A stretch of 22,700 bases of DNA from positions 1-22,700 of the forward strand of contig JALVPN010000221.1 in the NCBI GenBank assembly GCA_027031765.1, written 5' to 3'. Position 1 is the first letter of the stretch, and every line of letters begins with the position of its first letter. A model generated the notes under the pieces. It saw nothing but the letters and a program-made list of their open reading frames with translations, was not told where the DNA came from and made no database searches. The DNA is from Promethearchaeota archaeon. GTDB taxonomy: Archaea > Asgardarchaeota > Thorarchaeia > Thorarchaeales > Thorarchaeaceae. This document shows positions 6,352-22,510 of the stretch, piece after piece. A program made the translations under genes and the position numbers.

Positions 6352-6683
6352 CAACTGCTCACCGACAATGACATCGCATCCCAGAATATTCAACATTCCG
6401 GGCGCCCCCTCACGACCACGATAAGTACCCGTCTTTCCAACCAGACAGTGATATGGCCTGGCTGCGCATAACCGCCAATAAACACCTGTATAACCCGCTA
6501 CTATACCACTACCACCACCGACCGCCAGGTACTTACCAAGATTTCCGCGTGGTCTCCATGTCTTGTCGTTGGACCAGGTGCTCCGCAACCACGCATCATG
6601 GTCTCAAGATGTAATGCATTGTGGTCCCCTGACACATCATTGCAGTTGTCGCTGCAACATGAGAAGTGGTCTTCCGTGCCCCA

Positions 6684-7337
6684 TCACTCCGTCACGGGCT
6701 CTGATACTACAGGGCCCGAATACTTTGCCTGGAGCTCCTGCACGACCGCCCTTGCCTGGGCCCCCAACTCGTCCTCTCGTCCTACCAACGACTGCAATTC
6801 TGTCACTGCAATGGCATTGTGCCTGTGGGCCGCCAGGAACAGACTCTCAAGACAGTCGGTGAGCAGCTCCGTGTCCACTCCGCGGCCCTCCTCATATGCG
6901 ATAACTACTGGGTACGCAGCGTGTCTGTAAAAGTTGTTCTTGTATCCTTCCCCCAGAAAGGCAAGCCAGACATTCAGCACCAAGAGCATGATTCCGAAGG
7001 GAACATGCCCGCACATAAGCCCTTGGAACATGGGGTCAGCACTAGGACAGCAGAGAGAATACACAATCAAGAAGCCCAGGTTCCAGGGTAGGGCAACTAG
7101 GGTGAAATAGGAGCGGAGGTGGCTACCACACAGGAGCTGCCGCAAGCGACCAGCATGTCTGGTCGTGTATTCATCACCCCAGAAGTAGACATAGAGGATG
7201 GTCACAATGAAGGACTCTGGTACCATCACGCCTCCGAAAAAGATCATGATCCATGAGAAAAGGGCTATGTTTGAGAGAAAGATGTCGAAGACTGAGGAAA
7301 AGATGTCGAAGACTGAGGAAAAGATGTCGAGAGTCAT
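6684..7337 (-). CDS. Partner (putative immunity) membrane protein, family A
   Basis: ATGA overlap with the tip A stop. About 3 TM segments plus a helical C-terminal domain. Clear paralogue of 18747..19325 (shared FWGDEYTTRHAGRLR, AYEEGRGVDTELLTDCLES, QARAVVQELQAKYSGPVV). Confidence 0.75.
   Translation of the reverse strand: MTLDIFSSVFDIFSSVFDIFLSNIALFSWIMIFFGGVMVPESFIVTILYVYFWGDEYTTRHAGRLRQLLCGSHLRSYFTLVALPWNLGFLIVYSLCCPSADPMFQGLMCGHVPFGIMLLVLNVWLAFLGEGYKNNFYRHAAYPVVIAYEEGRGVDTELLTDCLESLFLAAHRHNAIAVTELQSLVGREDELGAQARAVVQELQAKYSGPVVSEPVTE
7278..7330. repeat. 21-bp tandem repeat, 2.5 copies (encodes DIFSSVF)
   Basis: aaagatgtcgaagactgagga x2 plus aaagatgtcga. Confidence 0.95.
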
Positions 7338-8257
7338 CGCTGTACCTCCGTGAACTCTTTGACCGAGGTTTCAAAATACTCTATCCATACGGATTGCATA
7401 GAGCCCACTATGAAGGAGTTGAACGCCGCACTTGCCATTCCCCGGAGAAGTCGGGGACAGTATATCTCTCTGAGCTTGCCAGACAGGTTCTCGGAAACAT
7501 GCCATAGCACTTGCAGTATGAAGGCATGCGTACCAGGTCCCATTGAGAACGTCAAGGCGGCCCACCATGCCCCCAATACCCCGACTACGAAATCGACCGT
7601 GACTCCACATGCTCCATAGGCCACTAGGAGTAGCGTCGACCGCTGACTCCAGGTCACATAGTGACCAGCCATGAGAGCCACTCTTGCAGCAGGTCCCATC
7701 ATGCACATTGTCATGCAGGCGTCTACTGCACCCAGACCAAGCAGCAGTGCGACACTCAACAGGAAGAGGACAGCTGAGGCGATACTCTCAACGGCAGTTG
7801 CCCCTGCCACATGCGCTGCCCAGGACTGTTCCTGTGGACTAGTCATCCGGTCGTCCACCGGCGTGCAAGTCTCACACCCTTCGACTCGAGAGTCACACAG
7901 CAGTTCCACTGAGACGTGCAGAGTAGCAGTGCCCCCTGCTGGAGTCGAGACCGTCAACGACAGGTGAATGCGCGGCCACCACCCTTCCCACCACGCCACA
8001 ACCTCCTCTGGCAACCTCTGGATGTCATCTGGGAGGAATCGGGCAGCTGGCAAGGGCTCGGCCTCTGCATGGCAGCCGTCAACATTCCCATGAGACTCCT
8101 CCGGCCCATCCGGGTCTGGCGCTGCCGGGTCGTGCCGCGTCAGCGCCGCTACCACCTTGATGTCGTGGGTGTGTATCTCCACCAGAGTGTACGAGGAGTA
8201 CCAATGTTTCATGATGACCACAGCATACTTGATGACTTGGGGGCCCCTGTCACTCAC
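7334..8257 (-). CDS. Orphan cassette, variable tip type A (junction module plus hydrophobic C-terminal domain)
   Basis: Begins directly in a degenerate junction module (QVIKYAVV...HDIKVVAALTRHDPAAPDPDGP). GTG overlaps the upstream stop. Paralogue of 19325..20389. Confidence 0.7.
   Translation of the reverse strand: MSDRGPQVIKYAVVIMKHWYSSYTLVEIHTHDIKVVAALTRHDPAAPDPDGPEESHGNVDGCHAEAEPLPAARFLPDDIQRLPEEVVAWWEGWWPRIHLSLTVSTPAGGTATLHVSVELLCDSRVEGCETCTPVDDRMTSPQEQSWAAHVAGATAVESIASAVLFLLSVALLLGLGAVDACMTMCMMGPAARVALMAGHYVTWSQRSTLLLVAYGACGVTVDFVVGVLGAWWAALTFSMGPGTHAFILQVLWHVSENLSGKLREIYCPRLLRGMASAAFNSFIVGSMQSVWIEYFETSVKEFTEVQR
8101..8240. repeat. Junction module copy 1 (degenerate)
   Basis: ccgggtcgtgccgcgtcagcgccgctaccaccttgatgtcgtg core shared with five other sites. 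Confidence 0.85.
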
Positions 8258-8790
8258 GGATGCCGGATATTATTAGTCGGCACTTGAGTGTTCCCAAGCC
8301 CTCCCGTAGGATCTGGGCTCGTACAACACACTCGTAAGAGGGCCATGAGAACTAACGGAAAGACCAACGAATACGTTAACTGCATGTCCTGCACCGTTTC
8401 CGGCAGTTCTTGGGGCCACAGTATTCCAATGACTAGCAAAGGCAGTCCGAAGAATATGGCGGTAGCACCGAGGTTGGCAATCAGACTTGCTCTCACGGTC
8501 CGGACAGTGGCCCCGTGAAGTCGGACGAGGAAAGGAAGAGGCCTCTCAGACTGGTCAGTCCTGGCCATAGCGGACTTTCTCGCATACCTCCTTGTTAGAT
8601 GACTTGCAATTCTAAGTACAATAAGTGGAAGGGAAGATATCATGTAAAGCCAGACCACAATCCATGGACTGATTGTCGTACGGACACCTCCTTTTCTCCT
8701 GCTATTTTGGACCTGAGAGGTAAATCCCTGCCATGACACCAAGTCCAAGCAATAGGAGCAGAGTTCGTGCACACTGCAAGAAAGTGTCAT
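8254..8790 (-). CDS. Partner (putative immunity) membrane protein, family C
   Basis: Three hydrophobic segments (WIVVWLYMISSLPLIVL, LGATAIFFGLPLLVIGILW, YSLVFPLVLMALL), directly after the 610-aa gene. The true start is uncertain and probably lies downstream of 8700 in transcription direction (GTG 8658 or ATG 8643). Confidence 0.65.
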   Translation of the reverse strand: MTLSCSVHELCSYCLDLVSWQGFTSQVQNSRRKGGVRTTISPWIVVWLYMISSLPLIVLRIASHLTRRYARKSAMARTDQSERPLPFLVRLHGATVRTVRASLIANLGATAIFFGLPLLVIGILWPQELPETVQDMQLTYSLVFPLVLMALLRVCCTSPDPTGGLGNTQVPTNNIRHP

Positions 8791-10534
8791 GGTACCCCCA
8801 CTCCTCTATTGTTTCGACCCTATACTTGCGTAGGGGTGTGAAAACTCGGCAGAAAAAAGTATGGGCAGCAAGCGTGTCCCCTCCAAAGACAATACCCCAT
8901 GTTAGTACAAATAACGAAACGACTGCATCACGCCATGCAATCTCTCTGAAAAGGTATCCCTGTGCAATGTTGACTATCAACGCAAATGCGAACCCAGTAT
9001 ATGCTAGCATGGACACCGTAAAAAGAAGTCTGGAATGCGGAATCAGTTGGAATGTGGCGAAAAACTGTGCCATCGTCAATGAAACCGTCACGCATATAGT
9101 GAGATCTCGGATTGCAGCGTGTCTGAGGACTCGCCCTACGGATGACTCGAAGTCCGCATCACTCATGGACTCTAGGAATGGGAAACTAAAGATACAGCTT
9201 TCTGTTGTGAGTGTTCCCAGTAGGTCCACATAGAAGACCATTGAGAATGTGAGCAATCCGATTACGAGGTTGAGAGTGAACTTCAAAGTTGGCCAAGGGC
9301 CTAACCATTCCAATTCGAGCGCATCTCTGGCCAGGTCTTCAAAACTAGCAACAAAACTTTCTGCCTGTGACCACCTACCTGCGCTCTGGGCAGTACCATC
9401 GGCAGTACCATCATACACCACCGGCTCATCCAGGTCCGGCGCTGTCGGGTCGTGCCGCGTCAGGTCCGCCACCACCCTGATGTCGTGGATTCGCATCCCC
9501 ACAAGGTCGGAACTGGAGTACCTGTAGCCCAGTATTGCCACGTACTTGATCACCCGGGAGGCATTGTTACAGTCGCCCAGTGCGAATGGGGCGGCCTGTC
9601 CATCGGTACTGGTAAAGACTGCGCCCTGTGGCGAGCCGTCGTGCTCGCCCCACGAGAACGTGACCGTCTTCTGGAAAAAGGACGTGTAGCTGTAGCCGGA
9701 CCACCTGCGGCAAGGCGACCCGCTGTCCTGTGGGTAGAAGTACGCATAGACGTAGCCCTTCCTGGCGTTGGACCACGAGTCACCAAACACCACCATCACT
9801 ACCCGTCGCATCTCCTCGTCACAGAGCGCGACGTACGTCTTGCCCATCCCGGCCCCGGAGTCCTGGAGCAGGTCGCAGACCACTGTGAACTCGCTGAGCT
9901 GGTAGAGCCTGAAGGGCCGGTCCAGGACGTGTACGTAGCACGGGCCGTGCCACCCCTCCCCGGTGGCTATCTCCGACCACGTCATGTAGCTCTGTCCTGA
10001 CGGTACTGTGAGCTCGCCGTCACCACGGGCACCGAAGGGGAACGACGGGTCGCTGTGGAACCCCTCCATGTCGTTGCACGTGTCGTGGAAGACCGTGGAC
10101 TCGGAGCCCACGTAGCTCACCCGGATGCCGTAGGCCCTCGCAAGGCCCTGAGTGACCCCATTGCGGTAGGCCTGTATGACGACGTACTGGATGGGCCTGT
10201 GACGGTCCACCTGGTCGTAGAGGTAGAGGACCTTCTCGTCAGCACCAGGCACGCCCGCCACCACTCCCTGTAGCGGGTCGTACCGCAGGGCCACCACGCC
10301 CGTGAACCGTCCCGGCACCGCCACCTGACTGCACGCGCTCGTACCGTCTTCCCGGTAGTAGTAGCGTGCGGTCACGTACACGGTTCTCCTGTTGAGGTGC
10401 CGCCCCAACAGCTGAGCTGTTTCGGGGGCACACCGACACACTCTGTCCTCTCTGAGCGTCCCCACAACACTACTGCGCGACACTGACACTGGAATGCTAC
10501 CTCTCCTCTTCTTTTCTCTCCTCTCCTCTCTCAC
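8702..10534 (-). CDS. Apparently full-length effector/surface protein: beta-rich N-terminal domain, junction module, hydrophobic tip type C
   Basis: 610-aa ORF. aa ~50-355 are rich in aromatic and beta-strand residues, DLTRHDP is at ~aa 357-363, and about 4 hydrophobic helices follow, ending TLLLLLGLGVMAGIYLSGPK. It is the only copy with a long intact N-terminus. Confidence 0.8.
   Translation of the reverse strand: MREERREKKRRGSIPVSVSRSSVVGTLREDRVCRCAPETAQLLGRHLNRRTVYVTARYYYREDGTSACSQVAVPGRFTGVVALRYDPLQGVVAGVPGADEKVLYLYDQVDRHRPIQYVVIQAYRNGVTQGLARAYGIRVSYVGSESTVFHDTCNDMEGFHSDPSFPFGARGDGELTVPSGQSYMTWSEIATGEGWHGPCYVHVLDRPFRLYQLSEFTVVCDLLQDSGAGMGKTYVALCDEEMRRVVMVVFGDSWSNARKGYVYAYFYPQDSGSPCRRWSGYSYTSFFQKTVTFSWGEHDGSPQGAVFTSTDGQAAPFALGDCNNASRVIKYVAILGYRYSSSDLVGMRIHDIRVVADLTRHDPTAPDLDEPVVYDGTADGTAQSAGRWSQAESFVASFEDLARDALELEWLGPWPTLKFTLNLVIGLLTFSMVFYVDLLGTLTTESCIFSFPFLESMSDADFESSVGRVLRHAAIRDLTICVTVSLTMAQFFATFQLIPHSRLLFTVSMLAYTGFAFALIVNIAQGYLFREIAWRDAVVSLFVLTWGIVFGGDTLAAHTFFCRVFTPLRKYRVETIEEWGYHDTFLQCARTLLLLLGLGVMAGIYLSGPK
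9421..9577. repeat. Junction module copy 2 (in the full-length gene)
   Basis: Encodes GDCNNASRVIKYVAILGYRYSSSDLVGMRIHDIRVVADLTRHDPTAPDLDEP. Confidence 0.92.
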
Positions 10535-11262
10535 TGTCTGCGTCTGTGTCTGTGTCCATGTCTGTGTTTCATGCAGGCGTCCTCTATCTTTCTCAGGCCC
10601 TCATGCGCGGTCCTGCACCCATGCCGGTGCATGGTACCACGCGACAGACGGGTGGATGAGGGTGCCCAGCCCCTACCCTGCACGGGGCCGGACCCGACTT
10701 TCTCTATCAAGTGCTACTCACATACGCGACAATATAAGGGGCGGGGTCACAGTGCCGTGCCGAACTCTGGCCCGGAGGGCCTGTCTGGCGCCATTCCGGG
10801 GATCATGGGAGAGGGAGAGGACGACGCGCCCACGAGGGTGTCCTGGAAAGGACAAAAATGGCCCTCTCTGCTTAACATCTGGCCACGCTGCTGGTGCGGC
10901 CACGACCACTCCGTCACGTGCTGTCCAGCGCCGGCTCCAGTGCAGGGTGTGCCACGGAGGAGAACCGGCCAGAAGACAGTCCACAACCCGTCCTTCAAGA
11001 GAGAGGGGAGCGACGGAAGAGAGATGAGTGAGGGATAGGACTGGCAACCAGATAGCATGTCTGCCGGAAAGGAGTTCAGCAGACGTTGTGGCCCGTCAAC
11101 TCAAGTCAATTCCGGCCCCGTATTTTGGGACACATCATTATCCGAAATATGCTCAGTCCTACTGTCAGTGCCGTGAAGACCAGTGTTGTCCGTCGTAGTC
11201 CGAGGAAATGGCAGTGGGCCTTTCCCTTGCAGGCCTGACAGCAGGAGGAAAATCTCAGTCCC

Positions 11263-11688
11263 TTACAACCGACCAAGAATGTTCAGTCCAATTATTCTTT
11301 CGAACTGGACAAGGTCATCGAGGTCGGACTTGAGTATGGTGAGCAGTATGGAGTTGTCAAAGTCCATGTAGCTGTGGACCAGGCGGTTCCTGAAGGCCGC
11401 CATCTTGGAAAGCCGCTCCGCAAAGTCCTGTGACAACAGACCATGCTTTGAAAGGACTGTGAACACTTCAGCATAGGAAGTGGGTTTTTCCCAGCCCATT
11501 CTACCTATGATTGCATTCCCGATGTCCAGACAGATCTGGATAGCTTCTATGAGATAGAACTTGGCGGCACCGAGATAGATACGGTTGTTCACCAGTTCGG
11601 CATGCCCTATTGATGCTATTTCTCTCAGGACAGCAATACTAGAGTCAAGTCGAGACAGTCTCTCCCTGATTGAACCAGAGGACATCAA
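11263..11688 (-). CDS. hepT: HEPN (DUF86/HepT-like) RNase toxin
   Basis: RNRLVHSY matches the R-X4-H-X-Y motif. EAIQICLDIGNAII and P-T-S-Y-A-E-V-F are typical of DUF86. Overlaps the MNT gene. Confidence 0.9.
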   Translation of the reverse strand: MMSSGSIRERLSRLDSSIAVLREIASIGHAELVNNRIYLGAAKFYLIEAIQICLDIGNAIIGRMGWEKPTSYAEVFTVLSKHGLLSQDFAERLSKMAAFRNRLVHSYMDFDNSILLTILKSDLDDLVQFERIIGLNILGRL

Positions 11689-12125
11689 GAGGCCTCACCG
11701 TCCACAAGGCGCCTGTGCAGATATGCGTAGTACGTGTCAAGGGCATACTTGAAGTCGAGGTACTCGATAAGCGTCCGGGTCTCAAAGGATGCCCGGATCT
11801 CATCGTCAAGACAATAGATGACGCGCCCGTCCTTGATGACCTGGTACCGGAACTCCACAGGGGCGTGGTCCAGGGACTGGAGGTCCACTTCGACATCAGG
11901 AACAATCCGGGACAGGTCGTAGGTCAGGTCTCTCAGGAGAGATGCGTACTCTGAGTCTGGTGTGCCATCTGGGAGCAGGACCGCAATATCGAGGTCACTG
12001 AGCGGAGTCGTAGCTCTCAAGGCGTAGGAACCATGGAGGTAGGCCAGTACAACGCCTTGGGTCGCCAGTATCTCGGTTATTGCCGGCAGCAATGCCTCCA
12101 GCTCTTCAGGACTCGGTCCAGTCAT
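11685..12125 (-). CDS. mntA: Minimal nucleotidyltransferase (MntA-like) antitoxin
   Basis: YLHGSYA...SDLDIAV catalytic motif, VDLQSL third Asp, 146 aa, directly upstream of the HEPN gene. Confidence 0.9.
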   Translation of the reverse strand: MTGPSPEELEALLPAITEILATQGVVLAYLHGSYALRATTPLSDLDIAVLLPDGTPDSEYASLLRDLTYDLSRIVPDVEVDLQSLDHAPVEFRYQVIKDGRVIYCLDDEIRASFETRTLIEYLDFKYALDTYYAYLHRRLVDGEAS

Positions 12126-12212
12126 CGGTACTTACCTGTTGATTGCGTCTCCTCGGAGTCCATTCTCAAGTATTCACACCGGCCTTACTGTAAAAAACGT
12201 ACTGGATGATGG

Positions 12213-12470
12213 CACCACAACTCCCTGTCTCGACAGGGGAGGAGACCATAGTCCCGGACGACTGCACACTACTACCTCCACCCTGTGGGTGGGAGTAGAC
12301 GTTGGGCCAGCCCTTCCCGTGCGGAGGACATCATCCGCCCCTCGCCCCTCGCCGTGGCCGCAACAGTGACCGCGCACAGGGCCCATGGCATGCGGCACAT
12401 ATCAACGCCCGTGCTCAGCGGGACTGCGGGGGCCACCCCTGGTCCTTCATGACTCAGAGTGGTCAGTCCG
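12213..12470 (-). pseudogene. Truncated cassette homology arm (no junction module or tip follows)
   Basis: Matches 22250-22490 and 14945-15040. Encodes SSAR/(frameshift)/KGWPNVYSHPQGGGSSVQSSGTM, homologous to SNARKGYVYAYFYPQDSG of the 610-aa gene. Homology ends at ~12213. Confidence 0.75.
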
Positions 12471-12666
12471 TGGTGGTCAAGCGCCGTCCTCGCACATGTC
12501 CATCTCGTCCAGTCCCGTGTCATCCTCCATCTCCTCCTCTATCTCCTCATCTGCCGGATATGGTCTGCCGGCGCCCCAGTACCTGTAGCGAGGGTCATAC
12601 ATAGGGTAACAGCACGTCATTACTACTACCCAGAGGACGAAGATGGGGTATCTTCCCATCTCATAC
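12283..12666. repeat. ~385-bp direct repeat, near-identical to 22318..22700
   Basis: Base-by-base comparison shows only scattered substitutions and small indels. Covers the 3' end of partner E plus the downstream arm. Confidence 0.93.
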
Positions 12667-12998
12667 ATGACACCTGACAGGAAAGCGGGGGGCAACAGGA
12701 GCCACCAGAACAAGGACGTGGGCAATACAGCGGAAGCATATGCCATGAGCATGTATGTGACCAGGTCTACTGGTCGTGTCACGTGTTCTGCGTACCATGC
12801 ACCACGTCTCGTGGGGTCAAGTCCCGCCCCTCTCATCTTCAGCACAAGCTGCCACTCACCGTCACGTCTGTAGCGACTGAACAAGATATAGATGGTCCCA
12901 CCAACCAGTACTCCAGTGCACCATGCAATCAAACTGAGGACACCTTCCTGCACCTGACAGCCCTCCGGCCGATAGTCCGGCCCGTAGTCACGTCCCAT
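12477..12998 (-). CDS. Partner (putative immunity) membrane protein, family E, with acidic tail
   Basis: About 4 hydrophobic segments and a C-terminal DEEIEEEMEDDTGLDEMD. ATG overlaps the stop of 12988..13203. Paralogue at 22511..22700. Confidence 0.72.
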   Translation of the reverse strand: MGRDYGPDYRPEGCQVQEGVLSLIAWCTGVLVGGTIYILFSRYRRDGEWQLVLKMRGAGLDPTRRGAWYAEHVTRPVDLVTYMLMAYASAVLPTSLFWWLLLPPAFLSGVMYEMGRYPIFVLWVVVMTCCYPMYDPRYRYWGAGRPYPADEEIEEEMEDDTGLDEMDMCEDGA

Positions 12999-13203
12999 CA
13001 GACCACTGATAAATCCACCCTACTAAGAAGCCAACTGCAAAGACGACTATAGTGAGCAAGACGACAAGATCCGCCAACATGAGTCCAAAATGTATCCGCC
13101 CCTCAAGGCCTCTCTTCTGCCACTGTTGCCCATGCTGATACCGCTCTCTGAAACACCTGGAGTACTCCGCAGCACCCCTACTCTTTTCACCCAAACGATA
13201 CAT
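12988..13203 (-). pseudogene. Probable remnant C-terminal end of a tip (type E)
   Basis: Ends in one long hydrophobic helix (FGLMLADLVVLLTIVVFAVGFLVGWIY), as tips B, C and D do, and overlaps the partner E start. No junction module upstream. Confidence 0.45.
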
Positions 13204-13239
13204 ACTCTACCTGAGCCGAGAGAAACAGGGAAAGGCAGA

Positions 13240-13890
13240 CTACTGTCTGCTGGACTCTTCTTTGAGCTTGTGTCGTTCCCAGAAGAACCTGACAATAGCA
13301 TGTGGTGAGTATCCAAAAGTGAGGCCCAGCAGCGGGATAATGAAAACACGTGGGTCTTGGAGTACAAACCAAATGGCCAGGAGCAAGGGCACATAGATCA
13401 CGACTATCGAAGAGAGCAAGAATGCTACAGTCCATTCTGTCTTGAAGAGGACCCTTCCGACAGGCGTTTCTTCAAACTCTTCTGAAAGTGTTTTTTCCCC
13501 TGACGTTGTGCGTCGCTCCCTCATCTTTTGCGAATGTCCCACAAGAGGGACGCCTATCAGCAGGGAATACAAGAACCATCCTATAGAAGATGAGAGGCCG
13601 ACCATCATTGCAGCTGGGAAGAGGGGTGACGACATCCCCAAGTCAGGCGGAAAGGGCTGTAGTAGGATTTTGACTGCAAGCCAGACCATCAGTATGGAAG
13701 GCACAATCATTACAAGGAATAAGACAGCAAGAAACACAAGAAATGAGAAGTCCCTCGTGTCCTTCATTCTCTCGCCGGGGTCTCTCATACCCAGTGACAT
13801 GACAGTAATCCCTTCCTTCCGGCTATTGTCCACATCCTTGTCAGGTTCAGACCCTGCTTGTACTTGGATGTCATACAAGGTCCATTCCAT
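13240..13890 (-). CDS. Partner (putative immunity) membrane protein, family D
   Basis: Four TM segments (FLVFLAVLFLVMIVPSILMVWLAV, MMVGLSSSIGWFLYSLLIGV, VAFLLSSIVVIYVPLLLAIWFV, FIIPLLGLTFG). Overlaps the tip D stop. Confidence 0.78.
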   Translation of the reverse strand: MEWTLYDIQVQAGSEPDKDVDNSRKEGITVMSLGMRDPGERMKDTRDFSFLVFLAVLFLVMIVPSILMVWLAVKILLQPFPPDLGMSSPLFPAAMMVGLSSSIGWFLYSLLIGVPLVGHSQKMRERRTTSGEKTLSEEFEETPVGRVLFKTEWTVAFLLSSIVVIYVPLLLAIWFVLQDPRVFIIPLLGLTFGYSPHAIVRFFWERHKLKEESSRQ

Positions 13891-14860
13891 TCAGGTAACA
13901 CCAGCTCAATACTCCAATTGCAGAGGCGAAGAGTCCTACAGCAGCAACCATCACAATCCCTGCTACAACAACATTTGAGACCACTTGTCTTGCTCTGTTG
14001 ATTTCCTCATCAGAGTGGAGTCTTGTTTCTATGTACTCAAAGTAGTCCATCTCGACAGGCGAGTTCAACCTGACTGCCTCAGCCAACGTGACAATACTGT
14101 CACACAGACACAGAAAGCCCATGAAAATCAACACAACAGCCGCAGTAAGCGGTCTGAGCACTCCATTGATGGTGTCCGTAACAACTCTTGCAGCTCCCAG
14201 GAAGATAGCTGTTGCGAAAGAAATGGCGAGTACCACGAAAAGAGCGCTGCCCAGACCAGTTTCTGCAGAGAGTGCAGCTGCAGCCATTGCTCGCTCCAGC
14301 AACTCCGCAACGAGCCAGGGAATTCCACCCGGTCCCAACAGATACTCAAAAGCATCATCGACAGCAGCACGGAAGACCGTGAGCGGGTCTTGTGTTCCCG
14401 CTGCATATCTCAGGAGAAGTGGCTGGAACAGGTCGATCATGCCATCCGGATGGACCTGGAAGCTTCCAAGAATATCAATGGAAAAATGTAGGCACATGTT
14501 CACCTCAGGGACTGGTGAGAACGTAATAAGAGAATGTAGTGTCGGCCACCACCCCGTCCAATACACCGTAAGATACTCTTGGACCGTTTCGAAGAGACTC
14601 TCCGCAAGGGTCTTGGCCTGGGCCGTCTGTCCGGTAACTGTACCATCATCTCCGACCGGCTCGTCCGGGTCTGGTGCTGTTGGGTCGTGCCGCGTCAGGT
14701 CCGCCACCACCCTGATGTCGTGAACCCGCATCCCCATAAGGTCGACACCGGAGTACCTGTAGGCCAAGACTGCCACGTACTTGATCACCCGGGAGGCATT
14801 GTCGCACCCGCCTATGAGACTTGGCGTCCCTGACCCACCAGTCCTCGCATACACCGCTCC
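13871..14860 (-). CDS. Orphan cassette, variable tip type D (5'-frameshifted)
   Basis: Homologous part of track ORF 13871..15277 starts at GAVYARTGGSGTPSLIGGCDNASRVIKYV...DLTRHDP, followed by YWTGWWPTL...DILG and hydrophobic helices. Confidence 0.72.
   Translation of the reverse strand, partial: GAVYARTGGSGTPSLIGGCDNASRVIKYVAVLAYRYSGVDLMGMRVHDIRVVADLTRHDPTAPDPDEPVGDDGTVTGQTAQAKTLAESLFETVQEYLTVYWTGWWPTLHSLITFSPVPEVNMCLHFSIDILGSFQVHPDGMIDLFQPLLLRYAAGTQDPLTVFRAAVDDAFEYLLGPGGIPWLVAELLERAMAAAALSAETGLGSALFVVLAISFATAIFLGAARVVTDTINGVLRPLTAAVVLIFMGFLCLCDSIVTLAEAVRLNSPVEMDYFEYIETRLHSDEEINRARQVVSNVVVAGIVMVAAVGLFASAIGVLSWCYLNGMDLV
14656..14810. repeat. Junction module copy 3
   Basis: Encodes CDNASRVIKYVAVLAYRYSGVDLMGMRVHDIRVVADLTRHDPTAPDPDEP. 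Confidence 0.92.
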
Positions 14861-14891
14861 CCGACCCACCGGTGCCCGCATACACCGCTCC
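14830..14891. repeat. 31-bp tandem duplication (frameshifting)
   Basis: ctgacccaccagtcctcgcatacaccgctcc / ccgacccaccggtgcccgcatacaccgctcc. Confidence 0.88.
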
Positions 14892-15198
14892 CTGACCACC
14901 CCGGTACGACTCCCACCAAGACTCCCCAGTTTCGACAGACCAAGACTCCCCAGTCTCGACAGAGGAGGAGGCCATGATCCCTGACGACTGCACACCACTA
15001 CCTCCACCCTGTGGGTAGGGGCAGACGTTGGGCCAGCCCCTGGTGGTACCACCTCACACACCGTCCAGATTCGCCCCATGCACCGCCCCAGTGGACACGC
15101 ATCACGGTTTCCCCCTACTTGTCGTCTGGGCCCAGCTGTGTCCTGTCCGCCACCAATGTCACTATGTCCGCCACCTTGTCCTATGGGGGGATTGTGGA
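14861..15198 (-). pseudogene. Frameshifted homology arm of cassette D
   Basis: Encodes in shifted frames VTLVADRTQ..., GWPNVCPYPQGGGSGVQSSGIM...ESWWESYRGGQGAVY, homologous to aa ~215-320 of the 610-aa gene. Confidence 0.7.
14915..14962. repeat. 24-bp tandem duplication (SVETGESW x2)
   Basis: accaagactccccagtttcgacag / accaagactccccagtctcgacag. Confidence 0.92.
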
Positions 15199-15858
15199 CT
15201 AATCCCCATTCTGTAGACGTGCCGCATACCATTCTGCGTACCATTCTCTGTAGGCCCTCCCAAATGCCTCTCCGCACTCATCGTCCCGCGCCAGCAGTTG
15301 TCTGAATGCTCTGGCAAAGCTGTTTCGCGTCCTCCCCTGACGCATCTTCTCGTACTTCGTGAGCAGACGGTGCACTAGTTCCTTGAATGCAGTCCTATCA
15401 GGTGTTGACTGACGAAATGCCGTTTCTACTGCCCCTACTATTTCATCTGTTGGAAGTTGTTCCCATGCCTCTTCCCATGCCCGCTCCCTGTCTGTCGTTT
15501 CTCTTCTCCCGAACCGTCTTAACGCACCTTTGTATGTGTCATAGAAGAAAGTTGGTGCAGTCAGGAAGATTGTCAATAGAACTCCAATCAGTGTAGTCTC
15601 GGCATTCTCGTAAGAGCCTGAGATGTAGGGCCACAAGCACAAGAATGTAATGAAGGCCACTGCCACAACATCGAACATACCATAGGTCGTCATTGCTCGC
15701 CTGAAAGTCCCACAGAAGAACCGTCCCACCCTCCGGAGTACGATGGGGCCACATTCATGCTCGGAACAAATGTCGGATACCCAGATGAAAACGGCCAACA
15801 GGAAGACCGTCCCGAACACTCCAAAGACTTGCAAGAGAAGGAGCTGTTGTTCAGTCAT
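15199..15858 (-). CDS. Partner (putative immunity) membrane protein, family B
   Basis: GAGGTG ribosome-binding site, 12 bp after the tip B stop. Three TM segments plus a helical C-terminal domain. Paralogue of 20537..21241. Confidence 0.8.
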   Translation of the reverse strand: MTEQQLLLLQVFGVFGTVFLLAVFIWVSDICSEHECGPIVLRRVGRFFCGTFRRAMTTYGMFDVVAVAFITFLCLWPYISGSYENAETTLIGVLLTIFLTAPTFFYDTYKGALRRFGRRETTDRERAWEEAWEQLPTDEIVGAVETAFRQSTPDRTAFKELVHRLLTKYEKMRQGRTRNSFARAFRQLLARDDECGEAFGRAYREWYAEWYAARLQNGD

Positions 15859-15870
15859 CAGATCCCCACC

Positions 15871-16842
15871 TCAAGAGTTCTCAAGACCCATTGTCAAGAA
15901 CCTGGAGATGCAATAGACACAAGTGACCAGGACTGCTACCTTTACCAGTGCTATTGCGGCATACCAAAGGCCTATTCTAAGGGGACCAGAAGGCATTGCA
16001 TCGAGTGGCCGTAGCAGTTCCCATAGACCAGACATGAACCATGCCATTCGGAGAGCATAGGCTAGCCCCGGGAAAAGCAGGCCTAACAATGTGGCTAGTG
16101 CTGTAGCTGCACCGAAGGGATGGACTATTCCCTCATCGACAACATAGAACAGATACGCCAAGTAAGATACAAATATCACAGTCCAAGCAGCAAGCATCGC
16201 TAGTAGGGTTCCCAAATCCATGCCAATCGTCAGAGGAGACGCCACAGCTTCTATTGCCCTCAACCCTAGTGATAGAGCATAGCTCAATGCTACAGGGATG
16301 ACAAAAAGGGAAATGAAATCAGTGTATTGTGTTTCCATTTCTGTAGCTGCACTCCGTAGCTCTTGTTCCGAATGTTCCCGTTCAACCGGAGTAACTATAC
16401 TCAGTGAATGTACTTGAAAGTCACCCAAGATATCAGTCGACACAAGGAATGTCAGAGTCCCCTCCCCATCAAATGTCCCAGTGAACTGCAAGAATAGACG
16501 GGGCCAGCAGTTGACCAGCTCCCAGGAGACATCAATTGACTGGAGGAATGGACTCAGGACTGCACCCACACTCTCTACGAGGTCGTCCTGATGCTCAACC
16601 GCCCCCATTCCTGTCCCATCAGATACCACCGGCTCCTCCGGGTCTGGCGCATCCGGGTCGTGCCGTGTCAGGTCTGCCACCACCCTGGTGTCGTGTATGC
16701 CCATCCCCATAAGGTCGACACCGGAGTACCTGTAGCCAAAAATCGCCACGTATTTGACCACGCGCGAGGCATTGTCGCACTTGCCTATCAGACCGGGCGT
16801 TCCAGACCCATCAGTGCCCGCATTCACCGCTCCCCGACCACC
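15871..16842 (-). CDS. Orphan cassette, variable tip type B (5'-frameshifted)
   Basis: Homologous part of track ORF 15871..17088: GGRGAVNAGTDGSGTPGLIGKCDNASRVV...DLTRHDP...NCWPRL...DILGDFQV plus hydrophobic helices. Paralogue of 21238..22302. Confidence 0.72.
   Translation of the reverse strand, partial: GGRGAVNAGTDGSGTPGLIGKCDNASRVVKYVAIFGYRYSGVDLMGMGIHDTRVVADLTRHDPDAPDPEEPVVSDGTGMGAVEHQDDLVESVGAVLSPFLQSIDVSWELVNCWPRLFLQFTGTFDGEGTLTFLVSTDILGDFQVHSLSIVTPVEREHSEQELRSAATEMETQYTDFISLFVIPVALSYALSLGLRAIEAVASPLTIGMDLGTLLAMLAAWTVIFVSYLAYLFYVVDEGIVHPFGAATALATLLGLLFPGLAYALRMAWFMSGLWELLRPLDAMPSGPLRIGLWYAAIALVKVAVLVTCVYCISRFLTMGLENS
16629..16785. repeat. Junction module copy 4
   Basis: Encodes KCDNASRVVKYVAIFGYRYSGVDLMGMGIHDTRVVADLTRHDPDAPDPEEP. 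Confidence 0.92.
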
Positions 16843-16965
16843 CTGAGAGGGCCCACCACAACTCCCCGGCCTTCTTGGACGGGGTGCGGACATGTCCGGG
16901 ACCCTAGTAGCCTGGAGGACCTGTCCTGTGGACAGAGGTATGCGTTGGACCAGCCCTTGGTGAGA
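16843..16965 (-). pseudogene. Frameshifted homology arm of cassette B
   Basis: Alternative frames encode KGWSNAYLCPQDRSSR and GELWW, matching the arm consensus. Confidence 0.6.
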
Positions 16966-17105
16966 CCGACCCCGCACACCACCCCGGAGGAGGGGCATCA
17001 CAGTTTCCTCCTGCCTATCAACTAGGCCTGCGCGTGTCCTATCCGTCATATTGGCGTCCTCATATACCCACTGGACCACGAGTGGCATTGCGATGCCAAC
17101 GATGA

Positions 17106-17576
17106 CTATTCTGATCCCAGTCCGGACTCCTCGTCTGCTCCCTCCTCGTCCTCCTCATCCTCCTCATCCTCCTCGTCCTCCTCGTCCTCCTCATCCTCCT
17201 CGTCCTCCTCCTCATCCATTGGCTCCTCCGTCACCATTATGGTCAACAGAATGGCATTCAGAAAGCCCCCCCAAGAAAAAGTCAGAAAGTCGTCAATGGA
17301 AGGATGAGGGGGTCCAAACAAGAAGTCTACGAGCTCGGATGGCGCAAGGAGATATCCTGCAAGGAGTATACACAGAAAAGGGGCTTCGAGTGCAATGATA
17401 TTGTACATGAACTCTGTAATCCGCTTCTCTGATGCTTTCAGATACAAGATGGCAATCACTGGACAGGCCTCTTCAGCTCCTCTGAGATGTCGGATGCCAT
17501 AGACACTCCCCACCCCTAGAACAATCAGTATCAAGACGCCTGCAACTAGGCCTAGCAAGAACCAATCGACATACAT
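17106..17576 (-). CDS. Orphan partner-like membrane protein with poly-acidic tail
   Basis: ATG at 17576 with GGAGG upstream (MYVDWFLLGLVAGVLILIVLG). About 3 TM segments and a C-terminal (EED)n tract. Confidence 0.75.
   Translation of the reverse strand: MYVDWFLLGLVAGVLILIVLGVGSVYGIRHLRGAEEACPVIAILYLKASEKRITEFMYNIIALEAPFLCILLAGYLLAPSELVDFLFGPPHPSIDDFLTFSWGGFLNAILLTIMVTEEPMDEEEDEEDEEDEEDEEDEEDEEDEEGADEESGLGSE
17142..17217. repeat. 9-bp tandem array encoding (EED)n
   Basis: (tcctc[ag]tcc)n, about 8 units. Confidence 0.92.
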
Positions 17577-17807
17577 AGTCTGTTCCTCCGCAGTGACATG
17601 TAGACAAAGACTGATTTGAATGCCAGCACTGTCCTCAGTCCCCTCCGGAGTAGACAAGAGATGCCAGTAGGACAGTATACGCGAGCAAGACTCATTGATG
17701 CTCCTGCTGTCCCGTCATTCATCACCGGCTGGTGACAATGAAGACCAAGGCATCGTCTCTGGAGCTCTGGAGTGATACTTCAGACATGCAGTGTTAACAA
17801 TCCGTTG

Positions 17808-18287
17808 TTAGTCCAGTCCTTCATTGCGGAACCAGAATTTGTCAACGACAAGAAGTACCAGGAAGATTCCCCCAAGAATGATGGTTAGTGTCCAGAGGGG
17901 GAGAAGGCCTTGGAGTACTCTGTTTGAGAGAGACTGGGGTCGATGAAAAGGAATGGGCCACAGCATTACGATACCGTTAAAGGCAATTATGAGCAGCTCC
18001 AGTACTCCCCGCCACCAGCGTGGCCTGGACTCCAAGAGAGCAACGTCCTCTGTTACCAGTCCTTCAAGGCCGAACAGGACTTCAATAAGGGATGTCCCGA
18101 GATACTTGTCGCAGAACCAGAGAGATAGAAAAAACGTGACAAGAGCAGTAACGAGCCAGATGAGAAACTTATGCCAGGGAGATAGAAACAACGTCGATAG
18201 AAACAGCGTCACAAGAGAGACGACGACCCAAATGACAAACAACTGGTATAGATGCGGTCCTCGGACTGTTCTAGTCATCACTGTCAC
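17808..18287 (-). CDS. Orphan partner-like 4-TM membrane protein
   Basis: Four hydrophobic segments, GAGGTG upstream, similar size and topology to partners C, D and E. No intact cognate tip. Confidence 0.75.
   Translation of the reverse strand: MTVMTRTVRGPHLYQLFVIWVVVSLVTLFLSTLFLSPWHKFLIWLVTALVTFFLSLWFCDKYLGTSLIEVLFGLEGLVTEDVALLESRPRWWRGVLELLIIAFNGIVMLWPIPFHRPQSLSNRVLQGLLPLWTLTIILGGIFLVLLVVDKFWFRNEGLD
18181..18210. repeat. 15-bp tandem duplication (TLFLS x2)
   Basis: gatagaaacaacgtc / gatagaaacagcgtc. Confidence 0.85.
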
Positions 18288-18299
18288 CTCTTTCAGTCC

Positions 18300-18632
18300 T
18301 CATACCACCCAACCTGGAGCGTGAAAAGGTGAATCCGCAGACTGCATGGCAGTGATCTGTCCCACTTCCCAGGCCACCGCCCGTAGCCACATAGTAGCGG
18401 GAACGGTCATCATCCACCCTGCAGCCCTCATTGCCACCCCTTGCCTCGTGTTGGCCCAAAGACACATCCCAGTGCTTACCGCCACTGCATAGACCGGGAA
18501 CACGGGATTTCCAAGGAGCGACACCAACAGAACCTCCAACTCGTTGTAGTCGGGTCGGTTCTTTGTCTTTTTTGGCAGCACCGGATGACTTGGTAGGGCC
18601 ATCCGGTACGGTTGACAGTCCGTCAAGACCAA
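18300..18632 (-). pseudogene. Possible degenerate tip remnant upstream of orphan partner 17808..18287
   Basis: Hydrophobic stretch LEVLLVSLLGNPVFPVYAVAVSTGMCLW...AAGWMMTVPATMWLRAVAW in the position where a tip is expected. No junction module. An overlapping frame (18271..18750) competes. Confidence 0.3.
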
Positions 18633-18746
18633 GAATGAACAGGTGCACCAACAAGGGGGCGGACAATACCACTGGCCCCGTCCTAGGCGACCGGGGCCAC
18701 ACCAGCAGTTGTCGCTGCAACGTGAGAAACGGTCTTCTGTGCCCCA

Positions 18747-19325
18747 TCACTCTGTCACGGGCCCTGGCACCACCGGGCCCGAATACTTTGCTTGGAGTTC
18801 CTGCACGACCGCCCTTGCCTGAACCCCCAACTCGTCCTCCCGGTCTATCAACGACTGTAATACCTCCTCTGCGATGACACTGTGCCTGTGGGCGGCCAGG
18901 AACACACTCTCAAGACAGTCCGTGAGGAGCTCCGTGTCCACTCCGCGGCCCTCCTCATACGCGGCAACTATCGGCTGCACAACATGTCTGGGAAAGCAGT
19001 CCTTGTACAGCTCTCCTATATAGACAGCCCCAATATTCAGCACCACCAGAGCGACAGCTCCGAGGAGGACATCCCACCACAGAGGAGTCCCCTGAAACAT
19101 GGGGTCATCACTGAGACTGTCGAGAAAATGCCCGATGAAGAAGCCCAGGTTCGCGGGCAGGGCAACAAGGGTGAAATAGGAGCGGAGGTGACTACCACAC
19201 AGGACTCGCCGCAGGCGACCAGCATGTCTGGTCGTGTACTCATCACCCCAGAAGACAGTGGTGATTGAACAGACCCACGCTAGTGCCATTACAGCTGCTA
19301 CCACAGCCAAGCGAAAAGAGGTCAT
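18747..19325 (-). CDS. Partner membrane protein, family A (allele A')
   Basis: ATG at 19325 in a TAATG overlap with the tip A' stop. Paralogue of 6684..7337. Confidence 0.78.
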   Translation of the reverse strand: MTSFRLAVVAAVMALAWVCSITTVFWGDEYTTRHAGRLRRVLCGSHLRSYFTLVALPANLGFFIGHFLDSLSDDPMFQGTPLWWDVLLGAVALVVLNIGAVYIGELYKDCFPRHVVQPIVAAYEEGRGVDTELLTDCLESVFLAAHRHSVIAEEVLQSLIDREDELGVQARAVVQELQAKYSGPVVPGPVTE

Positions 19326-20389
19326 TACTGTACCTCCATGAACTCTCTGACTGAGATCTCGTAAAACTTTGTCCATACGAACCACATAGATGCGACTATG
19401 AAGAAGTTGAACGCCGCAGCGACTATTCCCCAGAGAAGTCGGAAACGGTACGTTTCTCTGAGCTTACCAAACAAGTCCTCGGAAACATGCCACAAGAGTG
19501 GTACTATGAGGGCATACCCGACAAGCCCCGTTGGGTATGACAAGGCCATGCCCAACCACAGTCCCAGCAGTCCGACTACGAAATCGGCTGTGACCGCGCC
19601 TGCTCCATAGGCCGCTAGGAGTAGCGTAATCCACCGACTCCAAATCGCATAGTAACCAAGCATAAGGGCCACTTTTGCAGCAGGTTCTAGGCACGCCGCC
19701 ATCATGCAGGTGTCTACTACACCCAGACCAATTAGCAATGCGACACTCGACCACGCGATGGCAGTTGAAACAGTGTTCTCAACGGCAGTTGCCTCTGCCA
19801 CATGCACTGCCCAGGACTGCTCCTGTGCGTCAGTCATCCGGTCGTCCACCGGCGTGTCAATCTCACACCCTTCGACTCGAAAGTCACACAGCAGGTCGAC
19901 CGAGACGTGCAGAGTAGCCGTGCCACCTGCTGGAGTCGAGACCGTCAACGACAGGTGAATGCGGGGCCACCACCCTTCCCACCATGCCACAACCTGCTCC
20001 GGCAACCCCTGGATGTCATCCAGGAGGGACTGGACAGCTGGCGAGGGCTCGACCTCTGCATAGCACCCGTCAACAGTCCCATCGGACTCCTCTGGCTCCT
20101 CCGGGTCTGGCGCATCCGGGTCGTGCCGCGTCAGATCCGCCACCACCTTGATGTCGTGTATCCGCATCCCCACAAGGTCGAAACCAGAGTGCCTGTAACC
20201 CGAGACCGCCACGTACTTGGCCACACGCGGGGCATTGTCGCACTCGCCTATCGGACCAGGCGTCGCAGGCCCAGTGCTCACATTCACCGCTCCATCACCA
20301 CCCACCGGACAGTCCCCACCACAACGCCCCAGTCTTCCTGGACAGGGTGCACGAGTACCCTGGGTCCCAGTGGCCTGGAGGACTGTCAT
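19325..20389 (-). CDS. Orphan cassette, variable tip type A (allele A')
   Basis: IGECDNAPRVAKYV...DLTRHDPDAPDPEEP...WWEGWWPRIHLSLTV. In-frame homology starts ~20300 and upstream homology is in another frame. Confidence 0.72.
   Translation of the reverse strand: MTVLQATGTQGTRAPCPGRLGRCGGDCPVGGDGAVNVSTGPATPGPIGECDNAPRVAKYVAVSGYRHSGFDLVGMRIHDIKVVADLTRHDPDAPDPEEPEESDGTVDGCYAEVEPSPAVQSLLDDIQGLPEQVVAWWEGWWPRIHLSLTVSTPAGGTATLHVSVDLLCDFRVEGCEIDTPVDDRMTDAQEQSWAVHVAEATAVENTVSTAIAWSSVALLIGLGVVDTCMMAACLEPAAKVALMLGYYAIWSRWITLLLAAYGAGAVTADFVVGLLGLWLGMALSYPTGLVGYALIVPLLWHVSEDLFGKLRETYRFRLLWGIVAAAFNFFIVASMWFVWTKFYEISVREFMEVQ
20092..20248. repeat. Junction module copy 5
   Basis: Encodes ECDNAPRVAKYVAVSGYRHSGFDLVGMRIHDIKVVADLTRHDPDAPDPEEP. 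Confidence 0.92.
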
Positions 20390-20536
20390 GTAGAGAGGAG
20401 TAGACGTTGGACTGGCGTCTCATGCCGCCGGCCCACGCAACGCCCTGTCGACAGGCATCACGGTCGCTGTTGCTCGTCGTCCAAGCCCGGCTGTGTCATG
20501 TCCGCCACCAATGTACACTGTGTCCGCCACCCTGTC
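20390..20536 (-). pseudogene. Frameshifted homology arm of cassette A'
   Basis: A shifted frame reads RQSNVYSSLHDSPPGHWDPGYSCTLSRKTGALWWG (running into 20310), versus YAYFYPQDSGSPCRRWSGYSYTSFFQKTVTFSWG in the 610-aa gene. The TLVADMTQ segment is shared with 15100-15200. Confidence 0.68.
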
Positions 20537-21241
20537 CTATGGGGAGGCCATGGACTGGTCCCCGTCCTGTAGATATGTAGCATACCATTCTCTGTAGGCC
20601 CTCCTGAATGCCTCCCCGCACTCATCGTCCCGGGCCAGCAGCTGTCTGAATGCTCTGGCAAAGATGTTTCGCGTCCCCCCCTGACGCATCTTCTCGTACT
20701 CTGTGAGCAGACGGTGCACCAGTTCCTTGAATGCAGTCCTGTCAGGTGTTGACTTACGAAAGGCCGTCTCTACTGCCCCTACTACTGCATCTACTGGGAC
20801 CTGCTCCCACGCCTGTTCCAGGGCCCGCTCCCTGTCTGTCATCTCTCTTCTCCCGAACCGCCTTGAGAGCTCTCTGTATCTGCCGTAGACAGAGAAAATG
20901 AGAAAGAACAGTGGTAGAAGAATAAAAATCCAAATCACGGACAGAAGAAACAGGGATAGGCCATCCATCGGGCCTGCTGGCACTGACAATAGTGCTGACA
21001 GAAGTGGCACTGACAATAGTGCTGACAGAAGGAATGCTACCATAACATCAAACATGACATAGGTCGTCATTGCCCGTTTGAAAGTCCCACACAGGAAACG
21101 TCCCACCCTTCGCAGTACCATGGGGCCACATTCATGCTCGGAACAACAGTCGGATACCATGATAAACAAGCCGAACAACAGGAGTATTGCGGGCGCCCAG
21201 ATAATGAGGACTATCGGGAGGGGCGGTTGTTCGGTCATCAT
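20537..21241 (-). CDS. Partner membrane protein, family B (allele B')
   Basis: ATGA overlap with the tip B' stop. Paralogue of 15199..15858 (CSEHECGP, STPDRTAFKELVHRLLT, ARAFRQLLARDDECGEAF). Confidence 0.8.
   Translation of the reverse strand: MMTEQPPLPIVLIIWAPAILLLFGLFIMVSDCCSEHECGPMVLRRVGRFLCGTFKRAMTTYVMFDVMVAFLLSALLSVPLLSALLSVPAGPMDGLSLFLLSVIWIFILLPLFFLIFSVYGRYRELSRRFGRREMTDRERALEQAWEQVPVDAVVGAVETAFRKSTPDRTAFKELVHRLLTEYEKMRQGGTRNIFARAFRQLLARDDECGEAFRRAYREWYATYLQDGDQSMASP
20978..21031. repeat. Perfect 27-bp tandem duplication (LLSALLSVP x2)
   Basis: tggcactgacaatagtgctgacagaag x2. Confidence 0.95.
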
Positions 21242-22302
21242 GTTTCCACCTCAGAAGTCCAGTTCCTGAGACCCATCTCCAAGAACTTGACAATGTAATA
21301 GATACAGGTGACCAGGACCGCTACCTTTACCAGTACGACTGTGGCAGACCAGAGGCCTATCTTGCGGGAGCCAGAGGGCAGCCCTAGGTCGAAAGGTCGT
21401 CGTGTTCTCCATATACCAGACATGCACCAGGCCCTGCCAAGGACCAAGCGCATGGATCCGTCCCCAAGAAACGGTATCAAGAATGTGGTCAATGCTCCGG
21501 CGGCAGCAAGAGGACTGGTCACCCCCTCATCTACAGTATGGACTAGATACACCAAGTATGACACGAATGCCACAGTCCAAGCAGCAAGCATCACTAGCAG
21601 GACTCCCAGACTTGTGTCAATATTCAAAGGAGATGCCACAGCTTCTATTGCCTTCCATCCCAGTCCCACAGTAAGGGCAAGTGCCGTAGGGACAGCGTAT
21701 TCTGAAATGAGCTCGTCGTATTGTGTTTTCATTTCTGCCACTACATTCTGTAGCTCCTGCTCTGAGAGTCCCTGCTCAACCGAAGTAGCTATACTCAGTG
21801 AATGTATTTGAAAGTCACCCAAGATATCAGTTGAAACGAGTAGTGTGAGAGTCCCCTCCCCATCAAATGTCCCAGTGAACTGCAAGAATAGACGGGGCCA
21901 GAAGTTGACCAGCTCCCAGAAGACATCAATTGGCTGGAGGAATGGACTCAGGACTGCACCCACACTCTCTACGAGGTCGTCCTGATGCTCAACCGCCCCC
22001 ATTCCTGTCCCATCAGATACCACCGGCTCATCCGGGTCTGGCGCATCCGGGTCGTGCCGCGTCAGGTCCGCCACCACACTGGTGTCGTGTATGCGCATCC
22101 CCACCAGCTCGGGACTGGAGTACCTGTAGCCCAGGACTGCCACGTACTCGACCACCGGCAGGGACTTGTTGCACTCCGCTATCAGACATGCACTCTCCTG
22201 TCCGTCAATGCTCGGATACACCGTCCCGTGGCCACCCCGAAACGGATCCCACCACAACTCCCTTGTTTCGACAGAGGAAGTCATAGTCCCCGATGACAGC
22301 AC
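21238..22302 (-). CDS. Orphan cassette, variable tip type B (allele B')
   Basis: The frame is homologous to the 610-aa gene from KGWPNVYSYPQ (22350) through G-T-V-Y-P-S-I-D-G-Q and the junction module. In-frame stop at 22366-22368. Confidence 0.72.
   Translation of the reverse strand: MLSSGTMTSSVETRELWWDPFRGGHGTVYPSIDGQESACLIAECNKSLPVVEYVAVLGYRYSSPELVGMRIHDTSVVADLTRHDPDAPDPDEPVVSDGTGMGAVEHQDDLVESVGAVLSPFLQPIDVFWELVNFWPRLFLQFTGTFDGEGTLTLLVSTDILGDFQIHSLSIATSVEQGLSEQELQNVVAEMKTQYDELISEYAVPTALALTVGLGWKAIEAVASPLNIDTSLGVLLVMLAAWTVAFVSYLVYLVHTVDEGVTSPLAAAGALTTFLIPFLGDGSMRLVLGRAWCMSGIWRTRRPFDLGLPSGSRKIGLWSATVVLVKVAVLVTCIYYIVKFLEMGLRNWTSEVET
22023..22178. repeat. Junction module copy 6
   Basis: Encodes ECNKSLPVVEYVAVLGYRYSSPELVGMRIHDTSVVADLTRHDPDAPDPDEP. 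Confidence 0.92.
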
Positions 22303-22490: not shown

Positions 22491-22510
22491 TAGTGGTCAG
22501 TCCGTGGTGG

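Follow-up and report, generated by a model that had tools for sequence, protein, structure and literature searches.

Bacterial polymorphic toxin systems such as CdiA/CdiI, Rhs and MafB encode a large exported protein whose body is conserved, with a conserved motif where the constant part gives way to a variable C-terminal module. A small cognate gene comes next, and further downstream are spare cassettes that pair a C-terminus with its partner behind a 5' homology arm, as well as displaced fragments and orphan partner genes (PMC3482391). We found a similar layout on contig C221 of a Thorarchaeota (Asgard) genome bin of 2.95 Mb in 229 contigs. The whole contig, 22.7 kb, is referred to here as the window, and it is the downstream portion of a polymorphic cassette locus. 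Each cassette consists of a variable tail, or tip, behind a conserved junction, followed by a small partner gene. As in the bacterial systems, an exported conserved body (encoded by what we call the main gene) carries a variable module behind a junction, a small downstream gene co-varies with that module, and there is a spare array with homology arms. Unlike in the bacterial systems, the host is an archaeon, neither delivery by a type V, type VI or type VII secretion system (T5SS, T6SS, T7SS) nor any known pre-toxin or toxin domain is present, and all variable modules are allelic versions of one membrane-embedded fold, not unrelated enzymatic toxins.

The presence of a hydrophobic helical module beside a small multi-pass membrane protein recalls pore-forming colicins, Ssp6/Sip6 of the T6SS (PMC6889166) and the membrane-depolarising toxins of contact-dependent inhibition (PMC7858069), and as in those pairs specificity would presumably be set by contacts between helices within the membrane. 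However, no sequence or fold similarity to these toxins was found in the searches made, and the Thorarchaeota module is the C-terminus of a Sec-exported protein, so its helices should enter the membrane of the producer. Another comparison is with IdsD/IdsE of Proteus mirabilis, which are also encoded by adjacent membrane-protein genes with co-varying variable regions, and these regions determine allele-restricted pairing (PMC4471559). In contrast to the Thorarchaeota pairs, IdsD/IdsE are unrelated in sequence, depend on T6SS delivery, lack a cassette array, and have been demonstrated to bind.

The nearest archaeal analogue is VARTIG of Thermococcales, another lineage-restricted locus with a polymorphic-toxin-like layout and no known function, in which the C-terminal part of a large surface protein is hypervariable by recombination (PMC8416519). 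The variable part of VARTIG is an immunoglobulin (Ig) domain of an arCOG07710-type protein with other downstream genes, whereas the Thorarchaeota module consists of membrane helices with a one-to-one partner, and no Ig domain was found in the Thorarchaeota family by domain searches. The authors of that study searched for VARTIG outside Thermococcales and found no counterpart (PMC8416519), and we found no description of the Thorarchaeota family in full-text literature searches. Competition and mutual recognition are little known in archaea, and least in Asgard archaea. The present locus has the full genetic layout of the bacterial toxin-immunity systems, built from parts without described relatives, with a membrane-helix bundle matched to a membrane partner as its variable module. 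Should the pairs prove cognate, conflict between strains or self-recognition in Asgard archaea could be approached directly by experiment, the tails and partners would amount to a natural collection of more than 200 specific helix-helix recognition pairs, and the locus would exemplify cassette switching by recombination in archaea.

Co-segregation of tips and partners

A preliminary description of the window had reported that tips A and A' precede family-A partners and that tips B and B' precede family-B partners, and this was confirmed by BLASTP. The A/A' tips are 66% identical (E 5e-119) and the B/B' tips 67% (E 2e-115), and the corresponding partners share 71% and 61%. Between families, tips share 24-31% identity with weak yet significant scores, and partners had no BLASTP match to one another in the window. 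The five gene junctions also agreed with that description: an ATGA overlap for A (7334-7337), ATGATGA for B' (21238-21241), TAATG at 19325 for A', a partner start at 13890, 20 nt inside the tip, for C, and for B a 12-nt spacer, GGTGGGGATCTG, before 15858, which resembles a Shine-Dalgarno site. One end was corrected, as partner A' runs 18747-19325 and not to 19385. The tips and partners of cassettes C and D had been called unique, which is true inside the window but not elsewhere, since D-type tip and partner pairs occur in genomes G009, G085, G014 and G002.

Self-comparison of the DNA aligned 6642-7185 with 18705-19254 and 7333-8185 with 19321-20176 for A/A', and 15072-15520 with 20429-20864 and 15660-16866 with 21037-22262 for B/B'. 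The blocks start at the conserved core or junction and stop 42 nt (A) or 127 nt (B) past the partner stop. A/A' and B/B' are, thus, cassette-sized duplications, and co-segregation within the window is expected from copying, which proves linkage only and not interaction.

Cassettes from other genomes were collected with a profile of the conserved region. It matched 47 of the 87 genomes in the class, in many cases repeatedly within one genome, and the matches frequently lay at contig ends. A single peptide pattern recovered only long-arm cassettes; the wider set comes from the genome profile search, and ~690 kb around its matches was fetched for cassette calling. A cassette was called as an open reading frame (ORF) with a C-terminal core match and a tail of 200-340 residues, plus the next ORF downstream. 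This yielded 71 complete cassettes from 21 Thorarchaeota genomes, of which 70 were analysed after one mis-called cassette was dropped. Membrane helices were predicted in 68 of the 71 partners, and most often there were three.

Across these genomes, the association of tips with partners was far above chance. All tip pairs with at least 48% identity had similar partners and, conversely, all clearly similar partners had similar tips. Clustering of the 70 cassettes gave 24 pairs with a common tip and partner family, 17 with the tip family only, and none with the partner family only; the 17 were all pairs of distant tips in which partner similarity had faded. Concordant pairs averaged 0.42 and never exceeded 6 in 10,000 shuffles, compared to the 24 observed. 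A foreign partner match was available for 22 cassettes; in 18 of them the cassette with the closest foreign partner also had the closest foreign tip, and in the other 4 it ranked second. A Mantel-type comparison gave a rho of 0.22, against a maximum of 0.089 over 2,000 permutations. The preliminary description had named free reassortment of partners in other genomes as the outcome that would speak against cognate pairing. Such reassortment was not seen, with zero partner-only pairs in the 21 genomes.

The same families were also found at different positions. Members of the B family are spares in G000 (twice), G022, G024 and G005, whereas in G003 the family sits at the main-gene end; similarly, one family is at the main gene in G052 and a spare in G014 and G026, and another is at the main gene in G022 and a spare in G023. 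Arrays of a main gene followed by spares are present in other genomes (e.g., G022:C77 and G003:C12). In G002, an A-type tip remnant and an A-type partner are followed by a D-type remnant and a D-type partner, which is the reverse of the order in the window, and further concordant pairs or remnants were found in G005, G002, G014, G009 and G015. The occurrence of the same pair at both the main-gene end and spare positions, with shuffled neighbours, bears on the objection that linkage alone could create the pattern. Intact partners were found beside shortened tips or alone, both in the window and in other genomes, where about 20 partner-like ORFs lacked a complete tip. Two joints in metagenome data, 9820>20076 and 22277>14978, were not taken for population-level switching, as both coincide with stretches of the window matched by a paralogous contig, C42.

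Main protein, tail fold and sites of divergence

The longest paralogue in the genome is on contig C137, which is 4.1 kb. Its open frame (L013:256-4104, minus strand) exceeds 1,283 residues, lacks its 5' end and runs off the contig. C137 almost certainly adjoins the 22700 end of the window, to judge from the sequences at both ends. The partner of this main gene begins at the end of C137, and its final 62 residues are encoded at 22511-22700 (minus strand), where they are 97% identical to the C-terminus of the ORF at 12477-12998. Repeats support the same placement, since C137 1-458 is 93% identical to window 12739-13193, and window 22250-22700 is 93% identical to 12213-12666. The gap between the two contigs appears to be ~70 nt, and the assembly break is probably located at the 93%-identical repeat 12213-13239. 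The resulting order is the main gene, its own partner, and then the spare array.

Relatives of full length have 1,060-1,330 residues, with a few of ~2,090, and all come from bins of the Thorarchaeota class. The 19 examined consist of a signal peptide, a conserved ectodomain, the junction motif, a variable tail and C-terminal membrane helices. The signal peptide is of the Sec type, and no other export signal was found in these proteins. An N-terminal domain is followed by two to three repeated beta-sandwich domains, the junction motif, a proline-rich linker and the tail. The beta-sandwich domains are lectin-like, with weak signatures of Glce beta-sandwich, DUF2341 or carbohydrate-binding module (CBM) domains. 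In the main protein, the junction reads ..IHDI.VVADL.RHDP.APDP.EP..DGT, and ~250 variable residues follow. These tails comprise a helix, a four-stranded sheet and 4-5 membrane helices, and behind each tail type comes its own small gene, whose product has 2-3 predicted membrane helices. Searches of Pfam, PADLOC and PDB sequences with tips, partners and the main protein gave no matches except the weak Glce beta-sandwich/CBM ones in the ectodomain.

His-Gly and Ala-Cys motifs behind beta strands are typical of caspase, legumain and CHAT cysteine peptidases. The N-terminal ~200 residues of the full-length relatives contain invariant Y.SHGGP.G.VTG and HLF.AC.S motifs, each after beta strands (residues ~45-95 of P0002 on C137). 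A model of this domain, with a mean predicted local distance difference test score (pLDDT) of 63.6, gave weak Foldseek matches to CHAT (SAVED-CHAT 8tl0, E 1.3e-3), legumain, caspase-6 and MALT1 among matches to other alpha/beta folds, and a profile of the domain found nothing among PDB sequences. From the motifs and these weak matches, the domain may be a candidate caspase-like peptidase of the type that releases toxins in polymorphic toxin systems.

Six ORFs in the window share the core ..VIKYV..RIHD..VVADLTRHDP.APDP.EP, which is followed by ~250 variable residues with three to five hydrophobic helices. They lack the N-terminal part of the main protein, and their upstream homology to it covers 25-70 residues, or ~350 in D, and is out of frame with the tip in C. 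These ORFs are spare cassettes and not independent full genes. In a spare cassette, a 5' homology arm that is short or frameshifted leads into the junction, the tail and the partner, and the cassette looks promoter-less. Two more cassettes, at least, lie with partners on contig C42 (L014) of the same genome, where one tail is split over two frames, and the genome holds at least 10 cassettes in total.

AlphaFold2 modelling of the junction with tip B, from a 70-sequence alignment, gave a mean pLDDT of 78.5, with values >90 over most of the tail. The model has one helix, a four-stranded sheet with the conserved W..GWWP.LH and DLLG motifs, and five long hydrophobic helices. Foldseek found nothing in the PDB at E<=0.001, the Atlas gave a TM of at most 0.28, and VIA-align found generic helical bundles only, with Z up to 11.7. 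A colicin entry was absent among the matches listed in the three fold searches, and Atlas feature searches with tip B and partner B gave no usable match. A tail-only profile collected 233 clusters at 50% identity, in which the tail is always C-terminal. The family junction precedes the tail in 71 of the 79 cases with enough upstream sequence, and at least three of the other eight carry inserted fibronectin-III domains. The idea that tips might also sit on unrelated scaffolds was rejected, since the few junction-less proteins have fibronectin-III domains behind a junction-like remnant. Metagenomic proteins P0160, P0190 and P0130 represent this family variant, with one to two fibronectin type III domains between the junction-like remnant and the tail. 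It follows that the tails constitute a very large set of alleles of a single fold, confined to this surface-protein family.

The alleles do not differ evenly along their length. Identity between A and A' and between B and B' is 77-97% in the juxtamembrane sheet of the tip and in the soluble segments of the partner, where the ratio of nonsynonymous to synonymous substitution rates (dN/dS) is 0.07-0.3. The membrane helices of tip and partner are 30-63% identical, with a dN/dS of 0.4-1.4, and the highest values (0.8-1.4) occur in the A family. Divergence concentrated in the helices fits specificity through helix-helix contacts in the membrane. A complex prediction for tip B with partner B, run without controls and with alignments of five rows each, scored 0.51, 0.00 and 0.19 (mark, 0.32), which is evidence neither way.

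Readings of the tip-partner pairing

We lean slightly towards a reading in which each tail type is recognised, and neutralised or licensed, by its own partner, so that the pair would form a unit of inheritance much like effector-immunity pairs. This reading is favoured because orphan immunity genes and displaced toxin fragments are hallmarks of polymorphic toxin loci (PMC3482391), and the locus has orphan partners and displaced tip fragments. Recombination at the junction would exchange the tail and the partner together. The partner would recognise its own tail type through contacts between helices inside the membrane and would neutralise or license it, as the membrane immunity proteins of pore-forming colicins and T6SS pore toxins do. 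Partners without tails could protect against the tails of neighbouring strains, and the retention of intact partners beside shortened tips or alone fits an immunity-like role.

Several points weigh against this reading. No similarity of tips or partners to known toxin, immunity or defence families was found in Pfam, PADLOC and fold searches. Adjacent genes that are copied as one block co-segregate without any interaction. All tips have one fold, unlike the unrelated toxin folds of classical polymorphic toxins. The Sec signal and the strongly hydrophobic C-terminal helices, which would act as stop-transfer sequences, predict a tail anchored in the membrane of its own producer, and no delivery apparatus is evident, the Sec signal being the only one found. 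The raised dN/dS of the helices can reflect relaxed constraint, especially in silent cassettes. There is also one possible exception to the co-segregation, G014_L021_9880 and G073_L022_6897, in which the tips are 46% identical and the partners, both real membrane ORFs, do not match. This may be divergence past detection rather than a swap, or it may be a real swap. Divergence is plausible because partners diverge faster than tips, with a mean identity in matched pairs of 42% for partners vs 52% for tips. The proposal of cognate one-to-one, effector-immunity-like pairs in the preliminary description, then, held up in part: the cross-genome co-segregation, the lone partners and the helix divergence fit it, but linkage gives the same pattern and the tips are one fold.

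It is quite possible, although we would not count on it, that the locus is an undescribed contact-dependent system of kin discrimination or antagonism. In such a system, a lectin-bearing surface protein would carry an exchangeable membrane-helix effector, a small partner would neutralise it within the membrane in an allele-specific manner, and a silent cassette library would let a lineage switch the two together.

Another explanation, which we consider unlikely, is non-lethal recognition of self and non-self, in which an allele-restricted membrane complex of tail and partner would report kinship without toxicity and the array would serve to change identity. A kinship-reporting pair is known in Dictyostelium, TgrB1-TgrC1. 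That all tips are alleles of one fold speaks for this explanation, and the lectin-like ectodomain suits cell-cell contact. The variation sits in the membrane helices of both proteins, which compares with the variable subdomains of IdsD/IdsE that set allele-restricted binding (PMC4471559). However, orphan partners without tails are easier to explain by protection, and no route of cell-to-cell transfer is known.

Less likely still is a two-part membrane anchor. In this case, the tail would anchor a surface lectin or protease and the partner would be an assembly or stabilising subunit, while the diversity would come from helix drift or from virus pressure on a receptor and the array would consist of decaying duplicates. 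A signal peptide with C-terminal membrane helices does predict an anchored protein, the tail is limited to this surface-protein family (including the variants with fibronectin-III inserts), and some cassettes are frameshifted or shortened. An anchor does not account for several features: the constant and variable parts meet at a sharp boundary with homology arms, tail types number in the hundreds, pairs are exchanged between main and spare positions, and intact partners persist without tails. Also, virus pressure should hit the ectodomain, yet the ectodomain is the conserved part.

That the partners have a function unrelated to the tips and simply ride inside a recombining block is very improbable, since, although the pairs within the window are plain block duplications, translational coupling is conserved (ATGA, TAATG, overlaps), 68 of the 71 partners are membrane proteins like the tips, no discordant family pairs were found in 21 genomes despite shuffled neighbours, and the 3' ends of tips stay with their own partner type even in remnants.

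Cassettes and surroundings in the window

All the tip and partner genes described are on the minus strand, as are the other features whose coordinates are given below, except for a simple repeat. Cassette B' (21238-22302) has a short 5' arm, the junction and tip B', with three to five predicted membrane helices. The ATGA in its junction joins the tip stop to partner B' (20537-21241), a protein of 234 residues with three predicted membrane helices. Cassette A' follows (19325-20389), with arm, junction and tip, and partner A' has 192 residues counted from the ATG of TAATG.

The window holds more than the six cassettes. A tip remnant of a third type, comprising the last ~46 residues (18306-18443), is 59% identical to residues 220-265 of tip G020_L015_1318, and the intact partner beside it (17808-18287) is 33% identical (E 2.5e-10) to the partner of that same tip. 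An intact orphan partner (17106-17657) is 66% identical (E 7e-54) to the partner of tip G005_L020_2824, and no tip or tip remnant was found upstream of it. A remnant of the main-gene tip type, its last 83 residues (12991-13239), is 73% identical to residues 1201-1283 of the C137 protein and precedes a second copy of the main-gene partner (12477-12998), which is 87% identical to the partner fragment on C137. The partners at 17106-17657 and 12477-12998 end in long acidic tails (E/D runs), which the other partners lack.

Cassette B (15871-17088) has an arm, the junction and the tip that was modelled, with a match to the core. Partner B (15199-15858) has 219 residues, three predicted membrane helices and a soluble C-terminal part, and it is 56% identical to the partner of the G003 main gene. 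In cassette C (13871-15277), the 5' arm is frameshifted relative to the main protein, with the arm in frame -1 (15041-14862) and the junction and tip in frame -2 (14866-13916). Partner C (13240-13890) has 216 residues and ~4 predicted membrane helices.

A cassette 5' arm stump (12213-12313) is 87% identical to 14939-15039 and lies inside the 93% block shared with 22250-22700. It is cut off by an MNT nucleotidyltransferase/HepT RNase toxin-antitoxin pair (11263-12125; Pfam Polbeta 2.7e-17, HepT-like 2.8e-27) with ORFs that overlap by 4 nt, and the pair thereby interrupts a cassette arm inside the array. An MNT/HepT pair also adjoins a related tail locus on an unrelated metagenome contig.

Cassette D (8702-10534) has the longest 5' arm, with ~350 residues of the conserved ectodomain before the junction and tip, and matches residues 496-607 and 778-1098 of the main protein; no signal peptide was found in it. 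The start codon of partner D (8254-8790) is uncertain, and the stretch homologous to D-type partners in G009 and G085 starts at 8685, directly behind the motif AAGGAGGTG. Cassette A (7334-8257), which has a very short arm, the junction and tip A, matches the core, and partner A (6684-7337; 217 residues) is the last gene of the array, with its homology to A' ending 42 nt past its stop. Short in-frame tandem duplications lengthen the membrane segments of some partners: DIFSSVF is repeated in partner A and LLSALLSVP in partner B'.

An ORF of 320 residues (5626-6588) lies between the array and RadA, and it had no Pfam match and no relative among the fetched loci. RadA and an XPD-type helicase flank the array region, and the G+C content falls from ~65% in the flank to 49-58% across the array. 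Every label among the relatives of C221 is Candidatus Thorarchaeota. No RNA runs were listed as containing the stretch in the window, and one hydrothermal-vent DNA sequencing run contains it. A short simple repeat at 10535-10567, upstream of cassette D, was covered hundreds-fold in two metagenome runs by sequence from unrelated contigs; this peak is a mapping artefact and not a feature of the locus.

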